From a virus (Duplodnaviria > Heunggongvirae > Uroviricota > Caudoviricetes), in the IMG/VR virus record IMGVR_UViG_3300043178_000179: DNA of 64,000 nucleotides. The stretch is one strand, 5' to 3'. The notes under the pieces are model-generated. The model saw only the letters and a list, made by a program, of their open reading frames with translations, was not told the DNA's origin and did not search any database. The translations under genes and the position numbers were made by a program. Positions 5,961 to 50,738 of this stretch are shown one piece after another (position 1 is the stretch's first letter; every line of letters begins with the position of its first letter).

Positions 5961-6307
5961 CCGCCTGGACCGTCACCACCAAGGGGAACCTGCGGTGCCG
6001 GGCACACTTCCGCCGGGAGGGAGCCGCTGCTGGCATTCCCGGCGCGCTCCCCATTGCCTCGGAGTTGATCCGCGCTGCCGTAGTCGCGCTGGACCTCCCC
6101 GCGGTGCGTGCGGCTTTCCACCTGGTACTCCAGGGGTGGCCCGAGCTGGGCGAGTGGACCAAGCGCGGCACCTCCCCGCTGAGTGCGGCGTGGACCAAGG
6201 CGACGGCATACCGCGTCGTCGGTAACGCCGTGCCGCCTTCGCTGGCCGAGGCCGTCGGGCGGGCCGTGATCGAGGCCGATGCCACGTGGCGCAGGGTGGC
6301 GGGGTGA
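5957..6307 (+). pseudogene. remnant of a C5-cytosine DNA methyltransferase (C-terminal motifs IX-X only)
   Basis: 'LQGWPELGEW...YRVVGNAVPPSLAEAVGRAVIEA' is near-identical to the C-terminus of the full methylase at 26550..28334. Motifs I-VIII are absent. Confidence 0.5.
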
Positions 6308-7205: not shown

Positions 7206-7494
7206 GATTCTCGATCCGCCCTACCGCGGCGCGACGAGCTACGCGGCGGACTGCCCGCGCGAGACGGTGCTGGCGATGGCGCTGGACCTGCGAGCCCGCG
7301 GCGCGCGGGTCGCGGTCTGCGAGGCGGAGCCGCTGGCTCTCCCCGGCTGGCATCACCTCGACCTGACGGGCGTGCGCAGCGCGGGCGGGCCCGGATCGTG
7401 GTCCGCACGGCGCGCGAAGGGCGAGTGGCTGACGCTCAGCGACCCGCCGGCGGCGAGGCCGGTGGTCCAGCAAGCGCTCTGGCGGTCCGCATGA
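6303..7494 (+). CDS. DNA methyltransferase, N6A/N4C type
   Basis: 'YVPFAGALGE' (motif I-like) and 'ILDPPYRGATSY' (motif IV, DPPY). GTG start overlapping the upstream stop. Confidence 0.6.
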
Positions 7495-36795: not shown

Positions 36796-38268
36796 ATGGG
36801 TCTCTCCGAATCCTGGTTCACGGTCGATCGCAAGGGCCTCGCGAAGCTGCTGGAGCGCCGCGGCCTGGCCTTCGCGGTGCTGGAGCTCGTCCAGAACGCC
36901 TGGGACGAGCCCGGCGTCACCGAGGTGGATGTCACGTTGGAGCCGGTCCCGGGTCGGCCGCTGGTGCGGCTGACCGTGGGCGACGACGCCCCGGCGGGTT
37001 TCCAGCGGCTCTCGGACGCCTGGACGCTCTTCGCCGAGAGCGCCAAGAAGGGGAACCCTTCGCAGCGTGGCCGGTTCAACCTGGGCGAGAAGCTGGTGCT
37101 CTCGCTCTGCGAGGAGGCGACGATCGTGACGACGACGGGCGGAGTCCGCTTCGACATCGCGGGACGCCATGCCCTGCGGCAGCGTCGCGAACGAGGTTCG
37201 CTCGTGACGCTGATCCTGCGGATGACGCGCGAGCAACTCGCGGAGGTCCGTGCCGTCGCCGCGATGCTGATCCCTCCCGACACGATCCGCACGGTGTTCG
37301 ACGGGCAGGTGCTTTCTTCCCCGACCCCGGCCGGCCGGTGCGAGGTTGTGCTCCCGACCGAGCTATCCGACGAGGACGGGTTCCTCCGGCCCTCCGCGCG
37401 GAAGAGCGCGGTCACGGTCTACGAGGCGCCCAGCGGAGGCTGGCTCTACGAGATGGGGATCCCCGTCGTGGAGACGGGCGACCGCTGGCACTACGACGTG
37501 GGCCAGAAGGTCCCGCTCACGATGGACCGGCAGAACGTGCCGCCGTCCTTTCTCCGCAAGGTCCGCGCCGGGGTGCTCAACGCGCTCGCGGACCGGCTCC
37601 GGGACGAGGACGGGGCCGAGGGGTGGGTGCGGGAGGCCGCGGCCAGCCCCGAGTGCGAGCCCGCGGCCTTCGCGTCCGCGCTGACGTCGCGCTTCGGCGC
37701 GAACCGGGTGATCTACGACCCCTCGGACCCGGAGGCGAACCACCGGGCGGTGGCCGCCGGGTACACGTTGGTCCGGGGGAACCAGCTCTCGGCCGGCGAG
37801 CGGCAGAACCTCCAGCGGTTCCGGGACATGGGCCACCAGACCTTGCCGCCCGCGGGTCGGGTCTTCCCGACGAGGCCGACGGCGAAGGAGCCGACGCTGC
37901 CCGAGCGTCTGACCCCCGGCATGGAGCGGGTCTGTGACTACTCGGCGCATGTCGGGACGGTGCTGCTTGGTCTCCCGGTGTCGGCCCGGGTGATCGAGGA
38001 CCGGGAGATCACGGTGCTCGCGAGCTACGGCAACCGCCGGGTGACCTTCAACGCCGCCCGGCTGCACCCGGCCTTCTTCGACCGCACCGACGCCGACGGG
38101 CTGTTCTCCGTCCACGCCCTGCTCCTGCACGAGCTGGCGCACGAGTCCGAGGGCAACCACCTGGCCGACGGGTACCACGACGCGCTGTGCGACCTGGGCG
38201 CGGGCCTGGCCCGGGCGCTGCTGGACGGTTCGATCCGCCCCCGGGCCTACGGCTTCGATGTACCGTGA
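36796..38268 (+). CDS. GHKL-type (histidine kinase/Hsp90-like) ATPase domain protein with a C-terminal HExxH motif
   Basis: N-box 'LELVQNAWDE', 'GNPSQRGRFNLGEK'. C-terminal 'LLLHELAHESEGNH'. RBS AAGGAG. Confidence 0.55.
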   Translation: MGLSESWFTVDRKGLAKLLERRGLAFAVLELVQNAWDEPGVTEVDVTLEPVPGRPLVRLTVGDDAPAGFQRLSDAWTLFAESAKKGNPSQRGRFNLGEKLVLSLCEEATIVTTTGGVRFDIAGRHALRQRRERGSLVTLILRMTREQLAEVRAVAAMLIPPDTIRTVFDGQVLSSPTPAGRCEVVLPTELSDEDGFLRPSARKSAVTVYEAPSGGWLYEMGIPVVETGDRWHYDVGQKVPLTMDRQNVPPSFLRKVRAGVLNALADRLRDEDGAEGWVREAAASPECEPAAFASALTSRFGANRVIYDPSDPEANHRAVAAGYTLVRGNQLSAGERQNLQRFRDMGHQTLPPAGRVFPTRPTAKEPTLPERLTPGMERVCDYSAHVGTVLLGLPVSARVIEDREITVLASYGNRRVTFNAARLHPAFFDRTDADGLFSVHALLLHELAHESEGNHLADGYHDALCDLGAGLARALLDGSIRPRAYGFDVP

Positions 38269-42113: not shown

Positions 42114-42196
42114 GCGCGGATGGCGGAAACGGCAGACGCACCGAGCTCAAGCCTCGGCTCCCACGGGAACTGCGGGTTCGACTCCCGCTCCGCGCA
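42114..42196 (+). tRNA. tRNA-Leu (CAA)
   Basis: Acceptor GCGCGGA/TCCGCGC. Anticodon loop cTCAAgc. Long variable arm. T-loop TTCGACT. Confidence 0.8.
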
Positions 42197-42201
42197 CTCG
42201 T

Positions 42202-42287
42202 CCCGGTGTAGACGTCTATGGAGGACGGGCGGGCTGTAAACCCGTCGCCTTCGGGCCAGGGAGGTTCGATTCCTTCCACCGGGACCA
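42202..42287 (+). tRNA. tRNA-Tyr (GTA), CCA encoded
   Basis: Acceptor CCCGGTG/CACCGGG. Loop ctGTAaa. Long variable arm. Confidence 0.8.
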
Positions 42288-42291
42288 TCTT

Positions 42292-42380
42292 GGAGAGGCC
42301 GTCCTGCGTCGGCGCCAGGTACGCGGTTGGAAACCGCGTGGCCCTCATGGGGTCCGGGGGTTCGACTCCCTTCCTCTCCG
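42292..42380 (+). tRNA. tRNA-Ser (GGA)
   Basis: Acceptor GGAGAGG/CCTCTCC. Loop ttGGAaa. Long variable arm. Confidence 0.75.
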
Positions 42381-42385
42381 CTTGT

Positions 42386-42473
42386 GGCCGGGTGGTGGAA
42401 CTTTGGTAGACACGCCGCGCTCAGGACGCGGTGCTTTCGGGCGCTGAGGGTTCGACTCCCTCCCCGGTCACCA
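42386..42473 (+). tRNA. tRNA-Leu (CAG), CCA encoded
   Basis: Acceptor GGCCGGG/CCCGGTC. Loop ctCAGga. Long variable arm. Confidence 0.8.
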
Positions 42474-42477
42474 TCGT

Positions 42478-42563
42478 GTGCTCGTGGTGGAACATGGTAG
42501 ACACGCCGGGTTGAGGCCCGGTGCCCTCGGGCGGTGAGGGTTCGACTCCCTCCGAGCACACCA
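42478..42563 (+). tRNA. tRNA-Leu (GAG), CCA encoded
   Basis: Acceptor GTGCTCG/CGAGCAC. Loop ttGAGgc. Long variable arm. Confidence 0.8.
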
Positions 42564-42567
42564 TCAC

Positions 42568-42638
42568 AGGGGTCGTACAGGGTACGGGCTGGACTCCAAA
42601 TCCGGCCTTGAAGGGTTCGAGTCCCTTGGCCCCTGCCA
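42568..42638 (+). tRNA. tRNA-Trp (CCA), CCA encoded; compact D-arm
   Basis: Acceptor AGGGGTC/GGCCCCT. Loop ctCCAaa. T-arm aaggg-ttcgagt-ccctt. Confidence 0.65.
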
Positions 42639-42639
42639 C

Positions 42640-42726
42640 GGGAGCGTGGCCGAGAGGAAAGGCACCGGCTTGCTAAGCCGGCGAGGGTCCGGTGGGCCCG
42701 CGCGGGTTCGAGTCCCGCCGCTTCCG
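42640..42726 (+). tRNA. tRNA-Ser (GCT)
   Basis: Acceptor GGGAGCG/CGCTTCC. Loop ttGCTaa. Long variable arm. Confidence 0.75.
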
Positions 42727-42731
42727 CCTCT

Positions 42732-42804
42732 GGACAGGTAGCCCAGTCGGTAGAGCACTCGATTGAAGATCGGGGTGTCGGCGGTTCGATTCCGTCCCTG
42801 TCCA
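42732..42804 (+). tRNA. tRNA-Phe (GAA)
   Basis: Perfect acceptor GGACAGG/CCTGTCC. Loop ttGAAga. Confidence 0.85.
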
Positions 42805-42808
42805 CCTT

Positions 42809-42894
42809 GGAGGGTGTGCGCTCGTCGGCGAAGCGCGCTGGCCCCGAACGTCAGTGGTCCGATGGACCCGAGGGTTCGACTCCCTCACCCTCCG
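42809..42894 (+). tRNA. tRNA-Ser (CGA)
   Basis: Acceptor GGAGGGT/ACCCTCC. Loop ccCGAac. Long variable arm. Confidence 0.75.
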
Positions 42895-42898
42895 CCTT

Positions 42899-42986
42899 GG
42901 AGGACGTGCGCTCGTCGGCGAAGCGCACCGGCCTTGAACACCGGCGGCCCGTCTCGGGCCCGAGGGTTCGACTCCCTCGTCCTCCG
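42899..42986 (+). tRNA. tRNA-Ser (TGA)
   Basis: Acceptor GGAGGAC/GTCCTCC. Loop ctTGAac. Long variable arm. One C-A at the anticodon stem base. Confidence 0.65.
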
Positions 42987-43023
42987 CCTTGCCGCGCGGC
43001 CCATGCCGCGATATGGACCAGCC

Positions 43024-44184
43024 ATGAGCTGGGAGACCGCGAGCCCGGAGTTCCGACAGCAGGTGATCCGTCGGATCGAGCAGTCGGCCCGGAGGACCTA
43101 TCGCCAGCGCCTGCGGGATCCCGCCGCGCAGGACTTCCTCGCGTCGGTCGAGTTCGGTTGTCGGCGCCTCGACGCCGCGTGGGCGCGCGTCGGCTACACC
43201 TGGCCGGGCTGGACCTCCGGCCACGTCGCCCAAGTGAAGGCGATGTCCGAGCCGGTCCTGGGCCTCCCGCCCGGGACGATGGAGTCCAAGGTCGACGACG
43301 ACCTGGTGCTTTGCCAGATCCTCGGTCGGCGGTACGGCGGTCCCCTCTGGGTCCTGGAGGAGGACTGTGCCCGGGCGCTGGCCGCGACCGACCCGCCGAT
43401 CGACCTGATCTCGACGGAGGTGATGGAGTGCCGGCTGCGGCTGCCCTTTCCGTCGATCTGCCTCCAGCTCCCGCCGGTCTTCGAGCTGCACGACGAGCAG
43501 ACCGGCCGCGAGCACCCGGTCGAGGCGATCGAGGTCTGCATGACCTGGGGGCTGAACCTCGACCCCGAGCAGGCGCTCCGTTACCCGAACGCCCTGGCCG
43601 CGCGCCAGGCGCACGAGCCGATGCCGATGCTGCTGATCGTCGCGATCGGCAAGGCCCGAGGGTGTTTCGTCGGGGACGACGGCGTCCCGGTGCTCGACGA
43701 CACGCTCCGCAGCTTCACGCTCGGCGCCGGCCGCCGGGTGAGCGACTTCGGCAAGGTCTCGGGCCTCGACGCGGTCTACGTGGTGCTGAACCTCCTGATG
43801 GCCCTGAACGCGGGCTACCTGGAATCGCGCACGGTGGTCCCTTCCGGGCCGAAGAACCCGGCCAAGGCCGAGAAGCGCGAGCGCCGCGGCGAGGTGCTGG
43901 AGCGCCACACGCTGATCCGGCTCGGCCAGCGGGCGAGGGCGGCGTCCCCGCCGCGGCCCGCCCCGGCATCCGGTGAGCGCGACCCGGTGTCCGCGCACTT
44001 CGTCCGGGGCCACTGGCACTGCTACTGGGTGCGGGAGCCCGGAGACGACCCGGTCCTGTCGCGCAAGCCGGGGAAGAAGGGCGACGGCGAGCTGCACCTC
44101 GTCGCCCGGTGGGTGTTTCCCTTTCAGCGCGGGAGCGGGGGCCCGCCGGAGCCTCGCTATCGGGTCGCCGGATCGAAAAGTTGA
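43024..44184 (+). CDS. hypothetical protein (386 aa) embedded inside the tRNA array
   Basis: ATG start right after tRNA-Ser(TGA). Protein-like composition with no recognisable motif. Confidence 0.5.
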   Translation: MSWETASPEFRQQVIRRIEQSARRTYRQRLRDPAAQDFLASVEFGCRRLDAAWARVGYTWPGWTSGHVAQVKAMSEPVLGLPPGTMESKVDDDLVLCQILGRRYGGPLWVLEEDCARALAATDPPIDLISTEVMECRLRLPFPSICLQLPPVFELHDEQTGREHPVEAIEVCMTWGLNLDPEQALRYPNALAARQAHEPMPMLLIVAIGKARGCFVGDDGVPVLDDTLRSFTLGAGRRVSDFGKVSGLDAVYVVLNLLMALNAGYLESRTVVPSGPKNPAKAEKRERRGEVLERHTLIRLGQRARAASPPRPAPASGERDPVSAHFVRGHWHCYWVREPGDDPVLSRKPGKKGDGELHLVARWVFPFQRGSGGPPEPRYRVAGSKS

Positions 44185-44192
44185 CGACCCGC

Positions 44193-44220
44193 TTGACACC
44201 GCTCCATCGGGTGGTAAGGT
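44193..44220 (+). promoter_or_regulatory. candidate promoter TTGACA-16nt-TAAGGT (a second TTGACG sits 12 nt upstream)
   Basis: Consensus -35 plus TANNNT-like -10, directly before a 38-codon ORF and a strong terminator. Confidence 0.35.
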
Positions 44221-44367
44221 TCGCTCCATGAGAACGCGCTCCAACGAAGCGACCTGTCATCCGGCCCAGGCCGGACGACCGGTCGCGTGCGTGGAGAAGC
44301 GCATCGGTCGGCCGGATACCGACCGGGAGGTCTCCAAGGGATAGTCGCAGCGAGCGAAACCCGACGA

Positions 44368-44405
44368 GGCCCCCGGCACCGAGAGGTCCGGGGGCCTTGT
44401 CGTCT
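44368..44405 (+). terminator. hairpin terminator-like element (9-bp GC stem) immediately before tRNA-Arg
   Basis: ggcccccgg-(11 nt loop)-ccgggggcc followed by ttgtcgtct. Confidence 0.45.
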
Positions 44406-44478
44406 GGGCCCGAAGCTCAAATGGATGAGCGCCGGTCTCCGGAACCGGAGGTTGCGGGTTCGAGTCCCACCGGGCCTA
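44406..44478 (+). tRNA. tRNA-Arg (CCG)
   Basis: Acceptor GGGCCCG/CGGGCCT with G1-U72. Loop ctCCGga. One T-stem mismatch. Confidence 0.7.
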
Positions 44479-44545
44479 CCTTCAATCCTTGAAATCGCGA
44501 AACGAATGGCTGTCGGGCGGGCCGCCTCACGCTGGCCCGCCTCGT

Positions 44546-44621
44546 GTCCCCGAAGCTCAACTGGACGAGCGCCAGGCTACGGACCTGGATGTTGAGGGTT
44601 CGAGTCCCTCCGGGGATACCA
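44546..44621 (+). tRNA. tRNA-Arg (ACG), CCA encoded
   Basis: Acceptor GTCCCCG/CGGGGAT with G1-U72. Loop ctACGga. Confidence 0.8.
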
Positions 44622-44625
44622 TCAT

Positions 44626-44763
44626 GGCGAGGACGCCCTCCGGTTGGGCACAGCTTGAACACAGCTGCCTGCAAAGCAACACGCTGGCCTCCTCGGCCCG
44701 GGCGACCGGGCCCCCACGGCGAAGCGAACACGCTCCAAGTTGGTTCGATTCCAACCCTCGCCA
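44626..44763 (+). ncRNA. tRNA-shaped element (138 nt) with a ~68-nt insertion in the variable-loop position
   Basis: Perfect 7-bp acceptor GGCGAGG/CCTCGCC. D-arm gccc/gggc. Hairpin cagct-tgaacac-agctg. T-arm gttgg-ttcgatt-ccaac. The insert carries the hairpins ggcc-tcctc-ggcc and cccgg-gcgac-ccggg. Confidence 0.4.
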
Positions 44764-44771
44764 CCTCTCTT

Positions 44772-44908
44772 GGGGATGAAGCCTGTTGGTTCAGGCACAG
44801 GTACTCGGCACCTGCTTTCCGCAATCCCGCTGGCCTCCTCGGCCCGGACGACCGGGCCTCCTTCTGGCGAAGCGAACATGCTCAGGGGTTCGACTCCCCG
44901 CATCCCCA
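44772..44908 (+). ncRNA. second tRNA-shaped element (137 nt) with a homologous ~65-nt variable-region insertion
   Basis: Perfect acceptor GGGGATG/CATCCCC. D-arm gcct/aggc. Hairpin caggt-actcggc-acctg. The insert shares 'gctggcctcctcggcccgg.cgaccgggcc...gcgaagcgaaca' with the first element. Confidence 0.4.
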
Positions 44909-44965
44909 CCTTCTCGCCCCCGGCGTCGCTGGAGCCTTCCGGCTCGCGACGGCCGGCGAAACGCT

Positions 44966-45041
44966 GTGGTCGTAGCTCAACGGCTCAGAGCGCCGGGTTG
45001 TGGCCCCGGAGGTGCGGGTTCAACTCCCGCCGATCACCCCA
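44966..45041 (+). tRNA. tRNA-His (GTG), CCA encoded, C73
   Basis: Acceptor GTGGTCG/CGATCAC. Loop ttGTGgc. Discriminator C. Confidence 0.75.
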
Positions 45042-45042
45042 T

Positions 45043-45120
45043 GGTCTCGTGGTGAAGCCTGGAGTTCACGCTGGCCTGTCACGCCAGAGGTCGCGGGTTC
45101 AAATCCCGTCGGGACCGCCA
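45043..45120 (+). tRNA. tRNA-Asp (GTC), CCA encoded
   Basis: Acceptor GGTCTCG/CGGGACC. Loop ctGTCac. Confidence 0.8.
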
Positions 45121-45121
45121 T

Positions 45122-45194
45122 GGATCCATAGCTCAGATGGTAGAGCAGCGGCCTCTTAAGCCGACGGTCCAGGGTTCAAGTCCCTGTGGATCCA
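45122..45194 (+). tRNA. tRNA-Lys (CTT)
   Basis: Acceptor GGATCCA/TGGATCC. Loop ctCTTaa. Confidence 0.75.
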
Positions 45195-45246
45195 CCTTCA
45201 TTCGAGAGGAGGTTCGATGCACCCCAAACGCATCCCTGTGAGCTGC

Positions 45247-45319
45247 GGGCCCGAAGCTCACGGGTGAGCACCGGCCTTTTAAGCCGACAGGCAGGGTTCA
45301 AGTCCCTACGGGCCCACCA
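45247..45319 (+). tRNA. tRNA-Lys (TTT), CCA encoded
   Basis: Acceptor GGGCCCG/CGGGCCC. Loop ctTTTaa. Confidence 0.75.
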
Positions 45320-45393
45320 CCGGGTGTAGCTCAGCCTGGAAGAGCACCAGCCTTGGGCGCTGGACGTCGCAGGTTCAACCCCTGTCACCCGGA
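45320..45393 (+). tRNA. tRNA-Pro (TGG)
   Basis: C1-G72 acceptor CCGGGTG/CACCCGG. Loop ctTGGgc. Confidence 0.8.
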
Positions 45394-45440
45394 CCTGGAG
45401 GACACCATGTTCCGTCGACAACGACGCCTCGATTCGTCGC

Positions 45441-45510
45441 CGGGGCGTCCGCGGGAAGCGGCAGCCGGCCCTTGAAGCCGGTCAACTCGGTTCGATTCCG
45501 AGCGCCCCCG
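45441..45510 (+). tRNA. atypical tRNA-like (TTG anticodon, Gln-like) with C1-C72 mismatch and C33
   Basis: Anticodon hairpin ccggc-ccTTGaa-gccgg. T-arm ctcgg-ttcgatt-ccgag. Compact D-arm. Possibly a pseudogene. Confidence 0.35.
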
Positions 45511-45514
45511 CCTC

Positions 45515-45587
45515 CGCAGCGTAGCTCGGCTGGTAGAGCACCCGGCTCATACCCGGGCGGGCGTGGGTTCGAGTCCCACCGCTGCGA
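45515..45587 (+). tRNA. tRNA-Met (CAT), elongator or Ile2-type
   Basis: Acceptor CGCAGCG/CGCTGCG. Loop ctCATac. Lacks initiator features. Confidence 0.75.
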
Positions 45588-45590
45588 CTT

Positions 45591-45668
45591 CGGGCTGTGG
45601 CGAAGCCTGGTCATCGCGCCGGTCTGGGGGACCGGAGATCGCCGGTTCAAGTCCGGCCAGCCCGACCA
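45591..45668 (+). tRNA. tRNA-Pro (GGG), CCA encoded
   Basis: C1-G72 acceptor CGGGCTG/CAGCCCG. Loop ctGGGgg. Confidence 0.8.
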
Positions 45669-45672
45669 TCGT

Positions 45673-45747
45673 GCTCCCGTCGTCTAGCCCGGTCAGGACG
45701 GCGGCCCCTCAAGCCGCAAACGCAGGGTTCAACTCCCTCCGGGAGCA
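45673..45747 (+). tRNA. tRNA-Glu (CTC)
   Basis: Acceptor GCTCCCG/CGGGAGC. Glu-type 3-bp D-stem (t-cgtc-tag...gac). Loop ccCTCaa with C33. Confidence 0.7.
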
Positions 45748-45758
45748 CTTACCTTCCT

Positions 45759-45831
45759 GGATCCCAAGCTCAAGTGGTCGAGCGCGCGACTGTTAATCGC
45801 GTGGTGCTGGGTTCGAGTCCCAGGGGATCCG
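45759..45831 (+). tRNA. tRNA-Asn (GTT)
   Basis: Perfect acceptor GGATCCC/GGGATCC. Loop ctGTTaa. Confidence 0.85.
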
Positions 45832-45838
45832 CCTCCTT

Positions 45839-45913
45839 CCGGTCGCAGCTCGATGGTGGAGCATCCGCCTGATACGCGGGAGGCTGCTGGTTCAAGTCCA
45901 GCCGACCGGACCA
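45839..45913 (+). tRNA. tRNA-Ile (GAT), CCA encoded
   Basis: Acceptor CCGGTCG/CGACCGG. Loop ctGATac. Confidence 0.8.
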
Positions 45914-45917
45914 TCGC

Positions 45918-45991
45918 TGACCCTTAGCTCAACTGGCAGCAGCGCCCGGCTCTGGACCGGGAGGTTCCAGGTTCGACTCCTGGAGGGTCAA
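45918..45991 (+). tRNA. tRNA-Gln (CTG)
   Basis: U1-A72 acceptor TGACCCT/AGGGTCA. Loop ctCTGga. Confidence 0.75.
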
Positions 45992-45995
45992 CTTC

Positions 45996-46067
45996 GACGA
46001 CGTGGCCGAGAGGTGAGGCAACGGTCTGCAAAGCCGTTCGACGCCGGTTCGACTCCGGCCGTCGTCT
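45996..46067 (+). tRNA. tRNA-Cys (GCA), U73
   Basis: Acceptor GACGACG/CGTCGTC. Loop ctGCAaa. Discriminator U. Confidence 0.8.
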
Positions 46068-46126
46068 CTTGGGGCCGGCCCGTGGCCCCTGGGCGTGCCG
46101 ATGCCCAAGTCCGGTCGCGCTTGGCA

Positions 46127-46218
46127 GCTCTTCGGAGCACCGGGACTGCCGTCCCGGGTTGCGCTTGGCGCGGGCAGCTCTTCGGAGCGCCGGGACTGCC
46201 GTCCCGGGTGGACGACGC
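46127..46218 (+). repeat. tandem ~45-nt repeat, each unit carrying two hairpins (gctc-TTCG-gagc and cccggga-ctgccg-tcccggg)
   Basis: 'gcgcttggc[...]agctcttcggagc(a/g)ccgggactgccgtcccgggt' occurs twice back to back between tRNA-Cys and tRNA-Pro. Confidence 0.6.
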
Positions 46219-46305
46219 GGGAAGCCGCAGCTCGAAGCGACGCTGGCACCGTCGCCGACGGCACCGCAATCGCGGCCAGGGGAGGTAGACGGTAGCCTTC
46301 CCATC

Positions 46306-46379
46306 TCGGGGTGTAGCTCAGCCTGGAAGAGCGGCGGTTTCGGGAGCCGCAGGCCGTGGGTTCGAGTCCCGCCACCCCG
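46306..46379 (+). tRNA. tRNA-Pro (CGG)
   Basis: C1-G72 acceptor CGGGGTG/CACCCCG. Loop ttCGGga. Confidence 0.8.
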
Positions 46380-46813
46380 ACTTCGATCGCTTCCGAGTGC
46401 CCGCCTCGGAATCCGGATTCAGGGCGGCTGGATCGCCGCGGGCTGGTGGAGGGCAACCGCTGCCCCCAGTGCCTTGGGCATCCAGCGCCCTCGGCACACC
46501 CCTCTGGGGATGAAACGGTCTCGACGGGGTACGCAGGCTCGAATCGGCGTCGCAGGCGAGGAGCGGCCTTGACAGCCCACACGGCAAACTGCCAACAACA
46601 ACAACCACTTCGAGGCCCGCGCCGCGGCGTAGGCTTCGAGGTCCAGGGGCTTCGAGCCCCTGGCGTTCGGGGAGGAAGCTGGCCGAGCTTCCCTGGGCGC
46701 ATCCCAGGCCCGGCAGGTCCACTGGTGAACGCGACTCGACCGGTGGATCGGAGTGCATCGAGCGCTGACTGCCCGGGAAAGACGGGCGACACCCGCCGCT
46801 GGGTCACGCGGCA

Positions 46814-46874
46814 GGCGACGTAGCTGGTGACGGTGAGCGTGTTCCGGACGCGGGTTCGACTCCCGCCATCTCCA
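46814..46874 (+). pseudogene. truncated or degenerate tRNA (Gly-TCC-like anticodon hairpin, no variable region, 2 acceptor mismatches)
   Basis: D-arm plus hairpin gcgt-gTTCCgg-acgc, abutting the T-arm gcggg-ttcgact-cccgc. Confidence 0.3.
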
Positions 46875-46878
46875 CTTT

Positions 46879-46952
46879 GCGGCTGAGACCTCGAAGGTGA
46901 GGGCCCGCCTTGCCAGGGCGGGATGGGACGGGTTCGACTCCCGCCAGCCGCT
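46879..46952 (+). tRNA. tRNA-Gly (GCC), U73
   Basis: Acceptor GCGGCTG/CAGCCGC. 6-bp anticodon stem. Loop ttGCCag. Irregular D region. Confidence 0.6.
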
Positions 46953-47022
46953 CCTCGACGTGATCCCTGATCCTCCTTTGTGTCCAGAACCGATCGTGTG
47001 TCCAATCCAGGGGTCGCGTCCT

Positions 47023-47095
47023 GCCCTCGTAGCTCAGCCGGAAGAGCGCCGGTTTCGTAAACCGGAGGTCCGGGGTTCGATGCCCCGCGGGGGCT
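47023..47095 (+). tRNA. tRNA-Thr (CGT)
   Basis: Acceptor GCCCTCG/CGGGGGC. Loop ttCGTaa. Confidence 0.8.
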
Positions 47096-47100
47096 CCTTG

Positions 47101-47172
47101 GCCCGGGTAGCTCAGTGGTGGAGCACCGCCTTGGTAAGGCGGCGGCCATGGGTTCAAGTCCCATCCCGGGCT
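47101..47172 (+). tRNA. tRNA-Thr (GGT)
   Basis: Perfect acceptor GCCCGGG/CCCGGGC. Loop ttGGTaa. Confidence 0.8.
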
Positions 47173-47339
47173 CCTCGTCACCGGCCGGTCTCCGGCCGTC
47201 GCTGACGTTGGGACGAGCGGTGGCCAGTCCCCGCCGGAACCACGCCCGTTCGCGCGGGCGCCGGCGGAAGACCCTGGGCCATCCGAAAGGCTGGCTATAA
47301 ACCGGCTCGACCGGAGCAAACAGGGTTCCACCGCACTTC

Positions 47340-47411
47340 GCGGCCATGGCCGAGAGGTCAGGCACCGCGTTCCCAGCGCGGACGACGCGGGTTCGAGTCC
47401 CGCTGGCCGCT
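47340..47411 (+). tRNA. tRNA-Gly (CCC), U73
   Basis: Acceptor GCGGCCA/TGGCCGC. Loop ttCCCag. Confidence 0.7.
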
Positions 47412-47541
47412 CTTCGAGGAAGCGCAGCGGACGAGGCTTTGGCCCGGCCCGCGACCGTTTCACCGCGGGAGGGCGTTCGCCCGGACCACGGCGCGGTGTT
47501 GGGCCGGGGTGGGTAGCGAGCGGCTGACCAGCTTCCTCTTC

Positions 47542-47614
47542 GCAGGCGAGAGGCCAACGGTGGCCGCCTGGCCTTCCAAGCCGGGACGGACGGGTTCGAT
47601 CCCCGTCGCCTGCT
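47542..47614 (+). tRNA. tRNA-Gly (TCC), U73
   Basis: Acceptor GCAGGCG/CGCCTGC. Loop ctTCCaa. Confidence 0.7.
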
Positions 47615-47618
47615 CCTT

Positions 47619-47691
47619 GCCCGCAGGAGTGCGACTGGCAGCATGCTGGCCTTGTAAGCCGGCCGTCCCGGTTCGAGTCCGGGTGCGGGCT
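47619..47691 (+). tRNA. tRNA-Thr (TGT)
   Basis: Acceptor GCCCGCA/TGCGGGC. Loop ctTGTaa. Irregular D-arm. Confidence 0.65.
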
Positions 47692-47696
47692 TTCGG

Positions 47697-47772
47697 CGGC
47701 GCGTAGCTCAGGTGGGAGAGCACCAGCTCGACAAGCTGGGGGTCGCAGGTTCGAGCCCTGCCGCGCCGACCA
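47697..47772 (+). tRNA. tRNA-Val (GAC), CCA encoded
   Basis: Acceptor CGGCGCG/CGCGCCG. Loop tcGACaa with C33. Confidence 0.7.
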
Positions 47773-47915
47773 TCGACTGCACGGACACTCCTACACAAGT
47801 CCTCCGGATGCCCTGTCCGTGCGCCGCTGCGGGCGGTTTCGTTGGGGCGACAGGGGCTCAGGCTGGCCGGCGGGCCGAAGCACGCGCCTGGTAGAAGGCG
47901 CGTGGCGCCGGCAAC

Positions 47916-47988
47916 GGGGACGTAGCTCAGTTGGGAGAGCGCGGCGTTCGCAACGCCGAGGCCACGGGTTCGACTCCCGTCGTCTCCA
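47916..47988 (+). tRNA. tRNA-Ala (CGC) with the G3-U70 identity pair
   Basis: Acceptor GGGGACG/CGTCTCC. Loop ttCGCaa. Confidence 0.85.
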
Positions 47989-47992
47989 CCTT

Positions 47993-48065
47993 GGGGTCGT
48001 AGCTCACCTGGGAGAGCGCCAGAATGGCATTCTGGAGGTAGAGGGTTCGAGTCCCTTCGACTCCA
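47993..48065 (+). tRNA. tRNA-Ala (GGC) with the G3-U70 identity pair
   Basis: Acceptor GGGGTCG/CGACTCC. Loop atGGCat. Confidence 0.85.
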
Positions 48066-48067
48066 CT

Positions 48068-49336
48068 TCACCTCGGGCAGGCGAGCCCGGTGCTGGGCGC
48101 GTCCCAGCGCTCGTACTCCTTGGCGAGCACGTCCTCGATCCCGGCTCTCGGGTTCTCGGCTCGCCAGGCGGCGACCTGTTCGCGGATCGGGACGAAGCCG
48201 TAGGCGACGTTCTTGTCCTCGAACACGGTGATCGGTCGGCCCTCGCGCTTCCACCGGGCCACGACGGGGTTCCAGGTCCCGGTCCTCCGGAGCTTGGCGA
48301 CGCGCTTCTCGGGGAAGAGCGCCATCTGCGCGCCCCGCAGCGCGACGGCCTCGGCCTCCCACCGTTCGACCTCGCGGAAGAAGGCCGGCTCGATGACCGA
48401 CAGCGCCCAGTACCAGGACACGTCTTGGTACTTGCACATCATGCAGCCGGACTTCTGGACCCCGGAGAAGCCGCCGGCCGCGAGGATGCTCGGCTCGTCG
48501 AAGTGGGTGAGCCCGATCTGCCGCGCGGCCTTCTTCCGGGCCGCGGCGATCCGGTCTCGGTCGACCTTGGGGAGGCCGTCCAGGTCCTCGCGCTTGGTGA
48601 CCCCCATCTCGACGAGCGGGTAGGCGTCGCCCTCCCAGGCGAAGCGGCCCTTCTGGCTCGGCTCCAGCCGCAGCGCGCGCCGGGCCTCGTCGGCCGCGAT
48701 GCCGAGCAGCACGAGGTGGGACCGCCGGCGTCCCGCGAGCACGAACCGGTTCCACTCGGCGGTTCCGACGCCGAACCGTTCTCGACTCAGGTCGTCCATG
48801 AGTTCGCGGCCTGGCTCGACCTTGTGGTTCATGGTGCAGTCGGCCGGCTTCTTGAGGATGATCATGCGCCGGCTGGCGTAGTCGTCGAGGATCGGCGGTC
48901 GCCGGTGGTAGTAGCCCCGCGCGGCGCGGGCCTCGATGCTCTTCGGCGGGTCGCGCCGCCAGGGCGGGGTCAGCACGGGCAGGCGTTGCCCGGGCCGGGC
49001 CTCGCGCATCCGGCCGAGCTCGCGCAGCCAGGCGATCCACCCGTCGGGGCCCTTGGCCGGGGGCTTGCGCTGGACGATGAACCGCAGTCCGTGCCGGCTG
49101 GTGAGCTTCTCGATCCTCGGGATCAGGTCGTAGGTCGCGGGCCACTCGGCGCCGGGATCGGTGAACACGACGGCGTCCACGTCGCCCGGCCGGATGGTCT
49201 CGCCGTCCGCGATCAGTCCGGGCCCGACGAGCAGCAGCAGCATGGTGATGCTGTCGCGGCCCAGGCCGAGTCGGAGCACGACGAGGCGGTCCTTCTTCGC
49301 GCCCTTCGCGGCGTCGAGCAGCGCGTCGAGGTCCAT
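48068..49336 (-). CDS. PAPS reductase-like PP-loop family protein (third, divergent paralog) carrying the N-terminal DLDALL motif; lies inside the tRNA array
   Basis: 'MDLDALLDAAKGAKKDR' then 'LVVLRLGLGRDSITMLLLL' (degenerate PP-loop). 'GCMMCKY'. Confidence 0.5.
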   Translation of the reverse strand: MDLDALLDAAKGAKKDRLVVLRLGLGRDSITMLLLLVGPGLIADGETIRPGDVDAVVFTDPGAEWPATYDLIPRIEKLTSRHGLRFIVQRKPPAKGPDGWIAWLRELGRMREARPGQRLPVLTPPWRRDPPKSIEARAARGYYHRRPPILDDYASRRMIILKKPADCTMNHKVEPGRELMDDLSRERFGVGTAEWNRFVLAGRRRSHLVLLGIAADEARRALRLEPSQKGRFAWEGDAYPLVEMGVTKREDLDGLPKVDRDRIAAARKKAARQIGLTHFDEPSILAAGGFSGVQKSGCMMCKYQDVSWYWALSVIEPAFFREVERWEAEAVALRGAQMALFPEKRVAKLRRTGTWNPVVARWKREGRPITVFEDKNVAYGFVPIREQVAAWRAENPRAGIEDVLAKEYERWDAPSTGLACPR

Positions 49337-49394
49337 GGCCTCAAGCGTAGCCCGGCTTGACCTCCGCCGGCCACGGAACTACGTCGCGGTCGTG

Positions 49395-49607
49395 AGCGAG
49401 CCTCCGACCCCCGAGCGCATCGTGGCCGCGATCGAGTCCTGGCAGGCGGACCCTTACGTCCACCCGCTGACTTGCGGCTGGGACTCGCAGAACCACCGGC
49501 CGCTGCGGCCCCGCCGCGACGGGGACCAGGTGGTGCTGGTCTGCGAGGACTGCGACTACGTCCAGCGCTGGGTTCCGGCCGTGGTGCTGGGCCGCACGGG
49601 AGCGTAG
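49395..49607 (+). CDS. small Cys-containing protein
   Basis: GTG start. 'LTCGWDS...LVCEDCDYV'. The 3' end overlaps tRNA-Ala by 10 nt. Weak call. Confidence 0.25.
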   Translation, partial: SEPPTPERIVAAIESWQADPYVHPLTCGWDSQNHRPLRPRRDGDQVVLVCEDCDYVQRWVPAVVLGRTGA

Positions 49608-49670
49608 CTCAGTTGGGAGAGCATCGGCTTTGCAAGCCGGGGGTCGCGGGTTCGAGTCCCGCCGCTTCCA
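49598..49670 (+). tRNA. tRNA-Ala (TGC) with the G3-U70 identity pair
   Basis: Acceptor GGGAGCG/CGCTTCC. Loop ttTGCaa. Confidence 0.85.
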
Positions 49671-49677
49671 CCTTTCG

Positions 49678-49761
49678 AGCAGGGGTGCAGCATCGGTTCC
49701 GCTGGGAGGGCTCATAACCCTCCGGCTTCGGCCCAACCGGGTTCGACTCCCGGCCCTGCGT
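49678..49761 (+). tRNA. atypical class-II-like tRNA: CAU anticodon plus a 14-nt variable arm, A1-G72 mismatch
   Basis: D-stem cagc/gctg. Anticodon hairpin gaggg-ctCATaa-ccctc. Variable hairpin cggc-ttcg-gccc. T-arm ccggg-ttcgact-cccgg. Confidence 0.4.
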
Positions 49762-49769
49762 CCTTCTTT

Positions 49770-49841
49770 GCCCGCGTAGCCGACTGGGAAGGCGGCGGTC
49801 CTACAAACCGCTTCATGCAGGTTCGATTCCTGTCGCGGGTA
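49770..49841 (+). tRNA. tRNA-Val (TAC)
   Basis: Acceptor GCCCGCG/CGCGGGT. Loop ccTACaa. Confidence 0.8.
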
Positions 49842-49848
49842 CTTCGTC

Positions 49849-49923
49849 GCTGCCGAAGACGAAGCGGTCCAGTCACTGGTCTTTCAAGCCCGTCATTAGC
49901 GGGTTCGAGTCCCGCCGGCAGCA
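49849..49923 (+). tRNA. tRNA-Glu (TTC)
   Basis: Perfect acceptor GCTGCCG/CGGCAGC. 3-bp D-stem. Loop ctTTCaa. One U-C mismatch in the anticodon stem. Confidence 0.6.
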
Positions 49924-49930
49924 CCTTCAC

Positions 49931-50003
49931 GCGCCCGTAGCTCAGCTGGAAGAGCACCGACCTTCTACGTCGAGAGTCGTGGGTTCGATTCCCTCCGGGC
50001 GTA
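49931..50003 (+). tRNA. tRNA-Arg (TCT)
   Basis: Acceptor GCGCCCG/CGGGCGT. Loop ctTCTac. Confidence 0.7.
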
Positions 50004-50004
50004 C

Positions 50005-50078
50005 GTCCCCGAAGCTCAATGGAGGAGCGCCGGTTTCCTAAACCGGGCCAGTTGCGGGTTCGAGTCCCGCCGGGGACA
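50005..50078 (+). tRNA. tRNA-Arg (CCT)
   Basis: Perfect acceptor GTCCCCG/CGGGGAC. Loop ttCCTaa. Confidence 0.75.
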
Positions 50079-50123
50079 CCTTTCGTCCTGTCCGACAGCC
50101 ACGTTTGCGATTATGGATCGGTC

Positions 50124-50738
50124 ATGGAGACCACCGTACTGGTCCTGGACGCGGCGTACCAGCCGCTCAAGGTCGTCCCCTGGCAGAGGGCGATCGAGCT
50201 GATCGTCTCGCAGAAGGCGAACCTCGTCCAGGAGTACGCCGGCCGCGTCGTGCGGTCCGCGAAGCTGACCCTGCCGCTCCCGGCGGTGGTCGTGCTCCGC
50301 CGGTACGTCCGGCTCCGCAACCGGGTGAAGTTCAACCGCCGGAACGTGCTCGCGCGCGACGCGCACCGCTGCGGCTACTGCGGGACCCGTCCGCTCCGTC
50401 GCGACGGAAAGGTGGACCTGGCCGAGCTGACGATCGACCACGTCGTCCCCCGGGCGCAGGCTCGGGACGGCCGGGTACGGCTGCCCGGGGGCCGCGAGGT
50501 CCCGGTGACCTGCTGGGAGAACGTGGCGACGGCGTGCATCCCCTGCAACATGAAGAAGGCGGACCGTCGGCCCGACCAGGTCGGGATGACGCTCCGCCTG
50601 ACGCCCCGGAAGCCGAACGAGCTGGACATCCTGCGCATGGCGCTTTCCCGGGTGCAGGTCCCCGAGGAGTGGAAGGACTACCTGCCCAAGGACTCCTCCT
50701 GGGTGGACTACTGGGACGTCCAGCTCGACGCAGACTGA
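50124..50738 (+). CDS. HNH endonuclease
   Basis: 'RDAHRCGYCG...LTIDHVVPRAQ...WENVATACIPCNMKKADR' (CxxC...H-N-H...CxxC). Confidence 0.7.
   Translation: METTVLVLDAAYQPLKVVPWQRAIELIVSQKANLVQEYAGRVVRSAKLTLPLPAVVVLRRYVRLRNRVKFNRRNVLARDAHRCGYCGTRPLRRDGKVDLAELTIDHVVPRAQARDGRVRLPGGREVPVTCWENVATACIPCNMKKADRRPDQVGMTLRLTPRKPNELDILRMALSRVQVPEEWKDYLPKDSSWVDYWDVQLDAD

Follow-up and report, generated by a model that had tools for sequence, protein, structure and literature searches.

What kind of RNA is encoded by a gene that has all the stems of a tRNA together with a variable region of 69–71 nt, where normal tRNAs have 4–24 nt? The question is raised by a 42-gene tRNA cluster of a phage-like element, which harbours two such tRNA-shaped genes in tandem. 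They share the strand of the array and are flanked by tRNA-Arg(ACG) and tRNA-His. We analysed these genes (units 1 and 2; Table 1) in the context of the window, by which we mean the whole 64-kb stretch of DNA under study.

Two tRNA-shaped genes in a tRNA array

Both units have the anatomy of a tRNA: an acceptor stem of 7 bp, a D stem of 3–4 bp with GG in the D-loop, an anticodon stem of 5 bp with a 7-nt loop, and a T stem of 5 bp with a T-loop of the form UUCRANY. The one exception is the first T-stem pair of unit 2, which is A.G. These observations bear out the coordinates and anatomy of two tandem tRNA-shaped elements described in a sequence-only reading of this DNA (7-bp acceptors, D arm, anticodon-type hairpin, T arm and discriminator). 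That reading put the insert at 65–68 nt, which is slightly short of the 69–71 nt that separate the anticodon stem from the T stem. Folding, which it named as a check, supports its description. The MFE folds combine a cloverleaf with a long arm (z = -3.0 for unit 1 and -2.6 for unit 2), a structure at most 0.3 kcal/mol from the minimum in either unit, and RNAalifold predicts an identical architecture for the two. A custom detector that looks for a T arm, a 7-bp closure and a D stem within 95–220 nt returned both units, one artefact and nothing else on the two strands of the window. The two units are not chance structures.

The units are tightly packed into the array, with spacers of 4 nt between tRNA-Arg(ACG) and unit 1 and 6 nt between unit 1 and unit 2. 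No terminator-like site was found between the units and the flanking tRNAs, including both upstream tRNA-Arg genes. Like the neighbouring tRNAs, both genes end in A73 and CC followed by U. The array extends beyond tRNA-His as far as position 50080, and an AcrVA2-like gene (PF26125) lies inside it, about 440 nt upstream of the units. For Ala, Gly, Pro, Thr and Ser the array has triads with G, C and U at position 34, and the otherwise systematic G/C/U sets have three gaps only: Val-CAC, Arg-UCG and Leu-UAG.

Table 1. Coordinates of the two units, their parts and genes of the surrounding array
Feature	Position	Strand	Description
tRNA-Arg(CCG)	44406–44480	+	context; upstream of the units
tRNA-Arg(ACG)	44546–44621	+	context; immediately upstream of unit 1
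Unit 1, tRNA-shaped RNA	44626–44765	+	138 nt to discriminator, plus encoded CC
Unit 1 acceptor	44626–44632 / 44756–44762		GGCGAGG/CCUCGCC, 7 Watson-Crick pairs
Unit 1 D arm	44635–44649		GCCC-UCCGGUU-GGGC
Unit 1 anticodon-type arm	44651–44667		CAGCU-UGAACAC-AGCUG; loop G33, AAC
Unit 1 variable region	44668–44738	+	71 nt
Unit 1 5' core of arm	44682–44712	+	CGCUGGCCUCCUCGGCCCGGRCGACCGGGCC; 30/31 identical to unit 2
Unit 1 3' core of arm	44718–44734	+	GGCGAAGCGAACAYGCU; 15/17 identical to unit 2
Unit 1 T arm	44739–44755		GUUGG-UUCGAUU-CCAAC
Unit 1 3' end	44763; 44764–44765		A73; CC
Unit 2, tRNA-shaped RNA	44772–44910	+	137 nt to discriminator, plus encoded CC
Unit 2 acceptor	44772–44778 / 44901–44907		GGGGAUG/CAUCCCC, 7 bp
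Unit 2 D arm	44781–44796
Unit 2 anticodon-type arm	44798–44814		CAGGU-ACUCGGC-ACCUG; loop C33, UCG, G37
Unit 2 variable region	44815–44883	+	69 nt
Unit 2 5' core of arm	44828–44858	+	counterpart of unit 1 44682–44712
Unit 2 3' core of arm	44866–44881	+	counterpart of unit 1 44718–44734
Unit 2 T arm	44884–44900		AGGGG-UUCGACU-CCCCG, first pair A.G
Unit 2 3' end	44908; 44909–44910		A73; CC
tRNA-His(GUG)	44966–45041	+	context; next gene downstream of unit 2
tmRNA	46506–46875		bona fide; in array
HNH endonuclease gene	50019–50738		in array

A conserved arm on diverged bodies

The variable region forms the same arm in both units. In unit 1 it is one interrupted arm of 17 bp (3+4+3+7 bp) with a GCGA tetraloop, broken by a 5x5 pyrimidine-rich internal loop (UCCUC/CCCAC), a G/GA loop and a 4x5 loop. 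Unit 2 has ACGA as its tetraloop and UCCUC/UCCUUCU as the internal loop. Folded by itself, each insert also adopts the single long arm as its MFE. The two GC hairpins that had been proposed from the sequence (ggcc-tcctc-ggcc and cccgg-gcgac-ccggg) are 13–15 kcal/mol worse than this arm, whose distal 7-bp hairpin, GGCCCGG-RCGA-CCGGGCC, is far more stable than the two small ones. An 8-nt direct repeat, AACACGCU, lies around the central part of the unit 1 insert and has no match in unit 2.

Comparison of the two units shows how differently arm and body have fared. The bodies score 18 against each other, where the background among array tRNAs has a mean of 13.5 and a 95th percentile of 28. The arm core, by contrast, is identical at 45 of 48 positions (94%), in agreement with the earlier claim that the insert is conserved between the copies, and its distal pairs are invariant (14/14). 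Within the core, the pyrimidine-rich loop strand is identical at only three of seven positions (CCCAC versus UCCUUCU), so unconstrained positions had time to change. Among the 38 base pairs compared, nine differ on both sides, none on one side only, and one is broken. The double changes are spread over the acceptor (2), D stem (1), anticodon stem (1), T stem (2) and basal arm helix (3). Compensatory changes preserve all four stems of the cloverleaf, and given that the basal arm helix covaries at 3/3 pairs, the flanks of the insert are part of the structure. Gene conversion between the tandem copies could be an alternative to purifying selection on the arm, although it would need two short tracts that spare the pyrimidine-rich loop.

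tRNA models and decoding potential

ARAGORN calls neither unit, whether or not introns are allowed, and neither RF00005 (Rfam tRNA) nor the tRNA-Sec model matches them at E<=10. In the Rfam check for a known family, RF00023 (tmRNA) aligns below threshold with the acceptor and T arm of unit 2 at 25.2 bits (local E 1.9e-8, gathering threshold 47), with no match listed for unit 1. Between 44560 and 44970, no Rfam model of group I or group II introns or of self-cleaving ribozymes (hammerhead, twister, pistol, hatchet, HDV-like) matches at E<=10. The units are, as the sequence-only reading had it, neither normal class II tRNAs nor tRNAs with a group I intron. Their variable regions of 71 and 69 nt lie outside both class I (4–5 nt) and class II (about 10–24 nt). 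A tRNA interrupted by a group I intron was rejected, as the insert has ~65 nt and sits at the variable position, as against an anticodon-loop intron of more than about 200 nt with a P1–P9 fold.

With 4–5 nt in place of the variable region in silico, ARAGORN recognises both units: unit 1 as tRNA-Val(AAC) at default settings, unit 2 as tRNA-Arg(UCG) at -ps95. A covariance model built from the units, R1, aligns ordinary tRNAs end to end at 15–26 bits. The absence of U33 reported earlier holds for both units, with G33 in unit 1 and C33 in unit 2; G33 has no counterpart among the 42 array tRNAs, yet C33 also occurs in five of these ordinary tRNAs. To judge from G33 and A34, unit 1 has probably lost decoding. 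The anticodon loop of unit 2 is still a credible one for Arg-UCG, and this unit may have kept the ability to be charged and to decode as Arg-UCG. Its A8-A9 resembles the Arg tRNAs of the array, but it lacks the A20 that is present in both tRNA-Arg(CCG) and tRNA-Arg(ACG). That UCG is among the three anticodons missing from the array speaks for a decoding role of unit 2. The idea of an A8-U14 swap was dropped, being true of unit 1 alone.

Searches for relatives

Motif scans of IMG/VR, exact and gapped, hit nothing beyond coding sequence or ordinary tRNAs that matched by chance, and protein-based scans of IMG/VR gave no homologue. The motif scan of GTDB genomes had four matches, all chance. BLAST of the units, suggested earlier as a way to find other occurrences of the insert, found none in annotated phages (50,697 phage records, distant BLAST included) or in plasmids, and BLAST of the whole array against phages showed scattered tRNA similarity only. 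In a JGI metagenome scan, for which the pattern was too loose, there was no homologue among the matches listed (at least 120), and the source contig itself was not reached. Within the window the insert has two copies only, with 3 mismatches allowed.

Synteny was followed through neighbouring genes: the AcrVA2-like ORF, a 422-aa PAPS-reductase-like ORF and an HATPase ORF. Two of the loci (L014 and L015) belong to this very element, as pieces with 100% identity. Synteny is genuine for the relative L169, but its contig stops short of the relevant region; LR745208 has one gene in common only, and tRNA arrays are absent from all remaining relatives. The custom detector and R1 found no comparable element in other phage arrays (Frankenweenie, Rctr197k, CcrRogue, T4, L154, L156 and L158) or in 613 kb of loci. 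An apparent tRNA with an insertion in L094 is a partial tRNA-Gln duplication and no analogue. Since orthologues were not found, the comparative evidence is that of two paralogues in one genome.

Discussion

We propose, with a probability of roughly 0.5, that both units are tRNA-derived structured RNAs from a polycistronic array, in which the cloverleaf is a scaffold and the conserved arm a functional module. Derivation of a structured RNA from tRNA was among the earlier suggestions, and it is supported by the compensated cloverleaf stems, the single long insert arm and the neighbour-like gene ends. The units would be transcribed within the tRNA array of the mobile element and would mature as the neighbouring tRNAs do, through RNase P at the 5' end, 3' trimming and CCA completion, with the cloverleaf body providing for folding, processing and stability. 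The ~70-nt region would jut from the tRNA core as a rigid interrupted arm. Because the sequence of the arm, not just its pairing, is constant, a sequence-specific partner is most likely. Our first choice would be a protein that binds the arm at the pyrimidine-rich internal loop, and our second base pairing of the exposed CCUCCUC strand with a G-rich (Shine-Dalgarno-like) RNA. Within the window, no candidate partner protein was recognised, and extended targets of the C-rich strand (anti-Shine-Dalgarno or antisense) were confined to coding-sequence matches of the Ala-Glu-Glu-Ala type. Loss of decoding is consistent with an engineered ~50-nt V-loop insert, which left tRNA activity only marginal (PMC7590224). 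Arguing against the scaffold reading, the anticodon stems, 7-nt loops and purine 37 are kept in both units and would be superfluous for a pure scaffold.

The same features suggest working decoders, Arg-UCG and Val-AAC (read as IAC), with the hyper-extended arm in an accessory role, either protecting them from host tRNA-targeting nucleases as a shield or anti-determinant or serving as a factor-recruiting handle. ARAGORN recognises both once the insert is removed, an Arg-UCG tRNA fills a gap in the array, and C33 has its precedents there. In unit 2, A8-A9, G37 and A73 match the CGN Arg tRNAs of the array, which directly precede the units. By the established E. coli rules, anticodon identity requires C35 and G36 for ArgRS and A35, C36 and A73 for ValRS, and these bases are present. 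Translation also tolerates small V-arm aptamer tags (PMC7590224). Counter to this, G33 of unit 1 is without parallel in the array, an A34 Val anticodon is not normal in bacteria and leaves the missing CAC slot unfilled, unit 2 is without A20, and the invariance of the arm sequence is left unexplained. No natural tRNA known to us has a variable region approaching 70 nt, and on balance we consider working decoders unlikely. A bolder version, which seems to us rather improbable, takes tRNA-Arg(UCG), and perhaps also a Val tRNA, to be chargeable at full length. These would be natural 'aptamer-tagged' tRNAs whose variable arm (~70 nt, 17 bp) is longer than any other known. As a handle recognised by its sequence, the arm would either recruit a factor of the phage or the host to ribosomes during translation or conceal the tRNA from anticodon nucleases. 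If true, this would establish a third functional class of tRNA architecture besides class I and class II.

Nearly identical inserts, at the same structural site in bodies as dissimilar as unrelated tRNAs, could also mean that the ~65-nt core entered the variable loop of two tRNA genes as an intervening or mobile sequence, either excised to give tRNA-Val and tRNA-Arg or a selfish palindromic insertion. The direct repeat in unit 1 and the HNH endonuclease gene of the array are in line with this, which we nevertheless regard as quite improbable. The core has two copies in the window and none in the IMG/VR and GTDB motif scans or in phage and plasmid BLAST, no intron or ribozyme model matches at E<=10, and bulge-helix-bulge splicing is archaeal whereas the tmRNA of this element is bacterial. 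Dispersed copies such as mobile palindromes (MITE/REP-like) would have were not found in these searches, the direct repeat flanks the insert of unit 1 only, and the basal arm helix covaries. Divergence of the pyrimidine-rich loop inside the core disfavours a recent insertion. This divergence, the copy number in the window and the negative searches also disfavour the new tRNA-embedded insertion element that the sequence-only reading had considered. Its processed split-tRNA arrangement finds no support, every part of a cloverleaf being present and colinear in each unit. Decaying tRNA pseudogenes, their function gone, would be missed by standard tRNA finders and might well have loops without U33 and an A.G pair in a T stem. 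Yet nine compensatory double changes against one broken pair, perfect acceptor stems and canonical T loops in both units, a core that is 94% identical and significantly stable folds make decay very unlikely. Little probability attaches to the arm as an RNA decoy against host defence on a tRNA scaffold, for example one that imitates a CRISPR repeat or the RNA bound by some other defence protein. Sequence-level invariance of stems and flanks is expected of a protein-ligand mimic, an AcrVA2-like gene is nearby, and tRNA arrays have been proposed as anti-defence loci (PMC12803027). However, the proximity of a single anti-CRISPR-like gene carries little weight, the arm, with its 4-nt loop and 7-bp stem, shows no recognisable repeat handle, and in a comparison confined to Rfam it matches no CRISPR-DR or other family at E<=10. 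Miniature tmRNA-like molecules acting in trans-translation are effectively refuted. Like the units, tmRNA has an acceptor and T-arm domain around a large internal insertion, and RF00023 aligns with that domain of unit 2, but below its gathering threshold. The 3:70 pair is C-G in unit 1 and G-C in unit 2 instead of G3:U70, neither variable region has a stop codon (UAA, UAG or UGA) in any frame and hence a tag ORF, and the units, of only ~140 nt, have full D and anticodon-type arms and no pseudoknots, unlike tmRNA. The array has, besides, a bona fide tmRNA of its own.

Among known RNAs, class II tRNAs (bacterial Leu, Ser and Tyr; tRNA-Sec) and long-arm allo-tRNAs share with the units a paired extra arm between the anticodon stem and the T stem, a 7-bp acceptor, a 5-bp T stem, G18G19 and the T-loop consensus. 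The natural variable arms known to us measure about 10–24 nt, whereas those of the units have 69–71 nt, 17 bp and three internal loops, accompany G33 or C33, and place one arm sequence on two bodies with different anticodons; ARAGORN and the Rfam tRNA and tRNA-Sec models miss them. The closest analogue, by position only, is T4 species 1 (rnaC, 139 nt) and species 2 (rnaD, 119 nt), tandem RNAs of ~120–140 nt directly after tRNA-Arg in a phage tRNA cluster. Both are stable RNAs whose function is still not known (PMC3014915, PMC9697503). As in the units, rnaC has a canonical T arm (CCGGG-UUCGAAU-CCCGG) and an acceptor-like closure, but it has a ~45-nt 5' extension before the tRNA-like part and no variable-arm expansion, and rnaD is not tRNA-shaped (z = -0.8). 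The two T4 RNAs are not mutual paralogues, have no sequence similarity to the units and differ in fold layout. Structured RNA is also grafted into tRNA in engineered tRNA scaffolds (PMC3401473, PMC3753655), V-arm aptamer-tagged tRNAs and V-Spinach tRNAs; insertions into the variable loop are tolerated, and the cell folds, processes and stabilises the grafted RNA (PMC7590224). Those constructs are synthetic, whereas the units are natural, duplicated and under selection. In YrlA, the Ro-binding helix is formed by the RNA ends, in place of the anticodon stem. Such tRNA mimics (YrlA and bacterial Y RNA-like RNAs, RF02553) are known from bacteria (PMC4201824), and like the units they mimic D arm, T arm and acceptor, which YrlA joins to its protein-binding helix. 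RF02553 has no match in 44560–44970 at E<=10, and no TROVE/Ro60 domain was found in the ~30 proteins scanned in the window, which covers 64 kb of a 95-kb contig.

Stable RNAs in phage tRNA clusters have been known since T4, and to our knowledge the function of none has been explained. The units have a readable anatomy, in which a carrier part (the cloverleaf) is separable from a payload part (an arm of frozen sequence common to two unrelated bodies). This separation provides an experimental handle, the pull-down of arm binders. Should the RNAs prove to be processed and stable, nature would have its own version of the synthetic tRNA-scaffold and V-arm-tag designs used in RNA engineering; should unit 2 still decode, variable arms of tRNAs would span a far wider range of sizes than is known. 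Given that standard tRNA finders skip such genes silently, more of them may hide in the gaps of phage tRNA arrays.

The tRNA array of a phage-like element, with two tRNA-shaped units

The window derives from a 95-kb metagenomic contig, identical pieces of which occur in two other samples, and has a G+C content of 71%. Its proteins, mostly of unknown function, include peptidoglycan-binding lysin-like proteins, PcfJ-like proteins, HNH endonucleases and an AcrVA2-like protein. No close relative was found among 50,697 annotated phage records, and we take the window to belong to a large phage or another mobile element of that kind. In total it encodes 43 ARAGORN tRNA genes and a tmRNA. Coverage of four-codon boxes is systematic: all three G/C/U34 anticodons are present in the array for Ala, Gly, Pro, Thr and Ser(UCN), and only Val-CAC, Arg-UCG and Leu-UAG are absent from its G/C/U34 sets. 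The tRNA with a UUA anticodon outside the array could be a pointer to stop-codon read-through or recoding in the element.

Features of the tRNA array and of other parts of the window
Feature	Position	Strand	Remarks
Unit 1	44626-44765	+	Read from sequence
Unit 2	44772-44910	+	Read from sequence
tRNA array	42114-50080	+	41 ARAGORN-called tRNA genes and tmRNA, all on the same strand
Stretch holding both units	44622-44965		344 nt, blank in both ARAGORN and Rfam annotation
tmRNA	46506-46875		Predicted tag ANNNNHFEARAAA
tRNA-Leu(CAA)	33246-33321		ARAGORN; solitary, outside array, 1 kb from UUA-anticodon tRNA
tRNA with anticodon UUA	34276-34351		ARAGORN/Rfam; ochre-suppressor type, outside main array; Rfam tRNA 55.6 bits
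Long-arm tRNA	42478-42563		86 nt; Rfam tRNA 46.6 bits; not named by ARAGORN because anticodon loop has 6 nt (UUGAGG); probably Leu(GAG) with aberrant loop
C33 tRNAs	42809, 45442, 45673, 47697, 49770		Ser(CGA), Gln(UUG), Glu(CUC), Val(GAC), Val(UAC), respectively; otherwise ordinary, with C33 in place of a nearly universal U33
AcrVA2-like protein gene	42997-44184	+	PF26125; within array, ~440 nt upstream of unit 1
Strong GC hairpin	~44363-44402		After AcrVA2-like gene, directly before tRNA-Arg(CCG)
Shine-Dalgarno-like site	45197-45246		Between two Lys tRNAs; strong GAGAGGAGG, then ATG of a very short ORF extending into tRNA-Lys(UUU)
Five other unannotated array gaps	46069-46306, 46382-46505, 47175-47339, 47413-47541, 47773-47915		124-238 nt; no T-loop motif, no Rfam match at E<=1
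Terminator-like hairpin	47813-47836		The one such hairpin in these gaps
Three PAPS-reductase-like paralogues	4852-5634, 14893-15921, 48068-49336	third: -	PF01507/phrog_424; third lies inside array, on opposite strand
HATPase-type ATP-binding protein	36796-38268		Metagenomic homologues in thousands
Direct repeat	6126-7218, 28153-29203		~1.1 kb, 90% identity; spans starts of the two ORFs below
Two ~400-aa ORFs	6286-7494, 28313-29503		Function unassigned

In both units the acceptor stem is 7 bp long and perfectly paired, and two spacer bases separate it from a D stem of 4 bp whose loop contains GG. A26 comes next, then a stem of 5 bp closing a 7-nt loop and a long intervening region of 71 nt (unit 1) or 69 nt (unit 2); the units end in a T arm (loop UUCGAUU or UUCGACU), the acceptor 3' strand, A73 and CC. 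This cloverleaf, drawn by hand in the sequence-only reading, emerges from single-sequence folding of both units (z = -3.0 and -2.6), and RNAalifold gives the same architecture. A purpose-written detector (T arm, 7-bp closure and D stem, 95-220 nt), scanning both strands of the window, returned the two units and one artefact. With the intervening region swapped for 4-5 nt, ARAGORN calls tRNA-Val(AAC) for unit 1 at default stringency and tRNA-Arg(TCG) for unit 2 at 95% stringency, whichever junction was tried. R1, a covariance model derived from both units, matches ordinary tRNAs over their whole length, scoring 15-26 bits. Independent models thus agree on the cloverleaf; its acceptor pairing has covariance-model support, and the units are not ordinary long-arm tRNAs misfolded by hand.

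The intervening region folds into a single long arm of 3+4+3+7 = 17 bp. Evaluated as explicit models, the folds with this arm reach -61.7 and -62.1 kcal/mol; the structure is the MFE for unit 2, lies within 0.3 kcal/mol of it for unit 1, and is again the MFE when either insert is folded by itself. A GCGA or ACGA tetraloop caps the arm, which is interrupted by an internal loop rich in pyrimidines (UCCUC facing CCCAC or UCCUUCU), by a G/GA loop and, above the 3-bp basal helix, by a 4x4 or 4x5 loop. The two small hairpins proposed earlier must be given up: they overlap the 7-bp hairpin GGCCCGG-RCGA-CCGGGCC, so that all cannot form together, and the two-hairpin model reaches -48.9 and -46.6 kcal/mol, against the lower values for the long arm. 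A 3' mini-hairpin (AGCG-AACA-YGCU), modelled as 2.6-6 kcal/mol costlier, is a possible second conformation.

Conservation between the two units

Our structure-guided comparison of the units, two paralogues from one genome, covered 38 base pairs. Nine differ on both sides yet stay paired (acceptor 3 and 6, D 4, anticodon-stem 4, T 2 and 3, and all three of the basal arm); one-sided changes are absent, and a single pair is broken, the A.G of the unit 2 T stem. Segments of the body, the cloverleaf outside the arm, are 63-71% identical, and global alignment of the two bodies scores 18, inside the range seen between unrelated array tRNAs (mean 13.5, 95th percentile 28). The arm's core blocks are identical at 30 of 31 and 15 of 17 positions, and all 14 distal pairs are unchanged, for which we calculate a chance of ~5e-4 given the rate in the other stems (10/24). 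The intervening loop strand shows divergence in both sequence and length (3/7 identical), evidence against the arm identity having arisen by one recent copying event; two short gene-conversion tracts could still account for it. The simplest reading of these sequences is that the body is under structural selection and the arm under sequence-level selection.

Search for relatives

Motif scans of IMG/VR and GTDB genomes, and BLAST searches of annotated phages and plasmids with the units as queries, gave chance matches only. Synteny walks from three neighbouring proteins led to one true relative, a 4.4-kb ENA contig (L169) with the window's order of HNH gene, tRNA block and PAPS-reductase-like gene, the last 52% identical. 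Its tRNA block (1978-2515) reads Arg-Glu-Val-Met, with Val(CAC) in the position of the window's Val(UAC) and a 106-nt gap in that of Arg(UCU); the contig stops short of the region corresponding to the units. Seven other phage tRNA arrays, including those of T4, Rctr197k, CcrRogue, Frankenweenie and a 36-tRNA IMG/VR contig, hold no comparable element. Because neither the homologue searches nor these arrays yielded one, the units appear to be rare or lineage-specific, with two paralogues as the comparative basis.

The 36-tRNA contig carries a 77-nt tRNA-shaped sequence missed by ARAGORN (6048-6124; acceptor GGGGCAG/CUGCCCC, CCA encoded), a weak R1 match at 18.3 bits. On an AT-rich metagenome contig (1729-1905), the 3' two-thirds of tRNA-Gln(CUG) are repeated after the gene; this second copy contains a 32-nt GC-rich two-hairpin insertion and has a non-pairing 5' end. 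We rejected the latter as an analogue; it is probably an integration-site duplication or assembly chimera.

Decoding potential and alternative identities

By variable-region size, U33 and model detection, the units are not canonical tRNAs. The lack of U33 described in the sequence-only reading is confirmed (G33 in unit 1, C33 in unit 2), C33 also occurring in 5 of 42 array tRNAs; the other 37 have U33 and none has G33. Unit 2 combines A8-A9, C33, UCG, G37 and A73. Among array tRNAs, A8-A9 recurs in Arg(CCG), Arg(ACG) and Arg(CCU), and G37 in the first two; A20, present in the neighbouring Arg tRNAs, is absent from unit 2. Because of its Arg-like bases, its place just downstream of two CGN Arg tRNAs (unit 1 intervening) and the UCG gap in the array, unit 2 seems to derive from tRNA-Arg(UCG), and possibly still works as one. 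Decoding by unit 1 seems unlikely, since it has G33 and its Val anticodon, with A34, leaves the empty CAC slot unfilled. Engineered precedents point the same way by analogy: translation tolerates small hairpin tags in the V arm, but tRNA activity falls to a marginal level when the V loop carries a Spinach aptamer (PMC7590224). That the units are working tRNAs with an accessory arm is, on this evidence, rather unlikely. A8 also occurs in several array tRNAs (Arg, Lys, Asn, Glu), and the C33 and A8 features may reflect anticodon-loop changes that evade host nucleases.

Other identities fare worse. The Rfam tmRNA model aligned to unit 2 through the acceptor and T arm only (25 bits; threshold 47), G3:U70 is absent, the insert has no stop codon, and the real tmRNA lies 1.6 kb downstream; we rejected tmRNA, and a mini-tmRNA is barely conceivable. 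tmRNA aside, no intron, ribozyme, YrlA, CRISPR-repeat or other Rfam family matched the units at E<=10, and for tmRNA, intron-containing tRNA and YrlA alike, defining features are missing from the units. A dispersed repeat was discarded (only two copies in the window, with <=3 mismatches allowed), as was protein-coding sequence (ORFs overlapping the units extend into flanking tRNA genes). An intervening or mobile sequence is improbable, and a decoy in defence equally so. Pseudogenes are a slimmer prospect again. We conclude that the units, seen in a single lineage, are real, non-random and under selection.

A proposed role for the long arm

The best-supported model, to which we give a probability of about 0.5, is that the units are tRNA-processed, cloverleaf-stabilised RNAs with the long arm as payload. 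No terminator-like site lies between the units and flanking tRNAs, and their spacers and A73-CC-U ends are the same as in neighbouring tRNAs. The units would be co-transcribed with the array and matured by tRNA processing enzymes, the cloverleaf would supply stability, and the arm would engage a putative partner. Since the arm stems and the CCUCCUC strand are invariant and the opposite loop strand is variable, our first choice would be a sequence-specific protein recognising the arm's internal loop and helix. As a second option, the C-rich strand might pair with G-rich (Shine-Dalgarno-like) RNA, by analogy with the sRNAs of Gram-positive bacteria that use C-rich loops; a search of the 64-kb window for extended targets gave only coding-sequence matches.

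The nearest natural analogue is in T4, where the stable RNAs rnaD (119 nt) and rnaC (139 nt) come directly after tRNA-Arg, rnaC having a canonical T arm and an acceptor-like closure. No role has yet been assigned to either (PMC3014915, PMC9697503). The likeness is positional and conceptual only, since the T4 RNAs are not homologous to the units. In structure the units take class II tRNA architecture to an extreme, and synthetic tRNA scaffolds and tRNAs tagged in the V arm may be their functional counterparts. The units belong with the tRNA-derived RNAs of phage tRNA clusters and with long-arm tRNAs.
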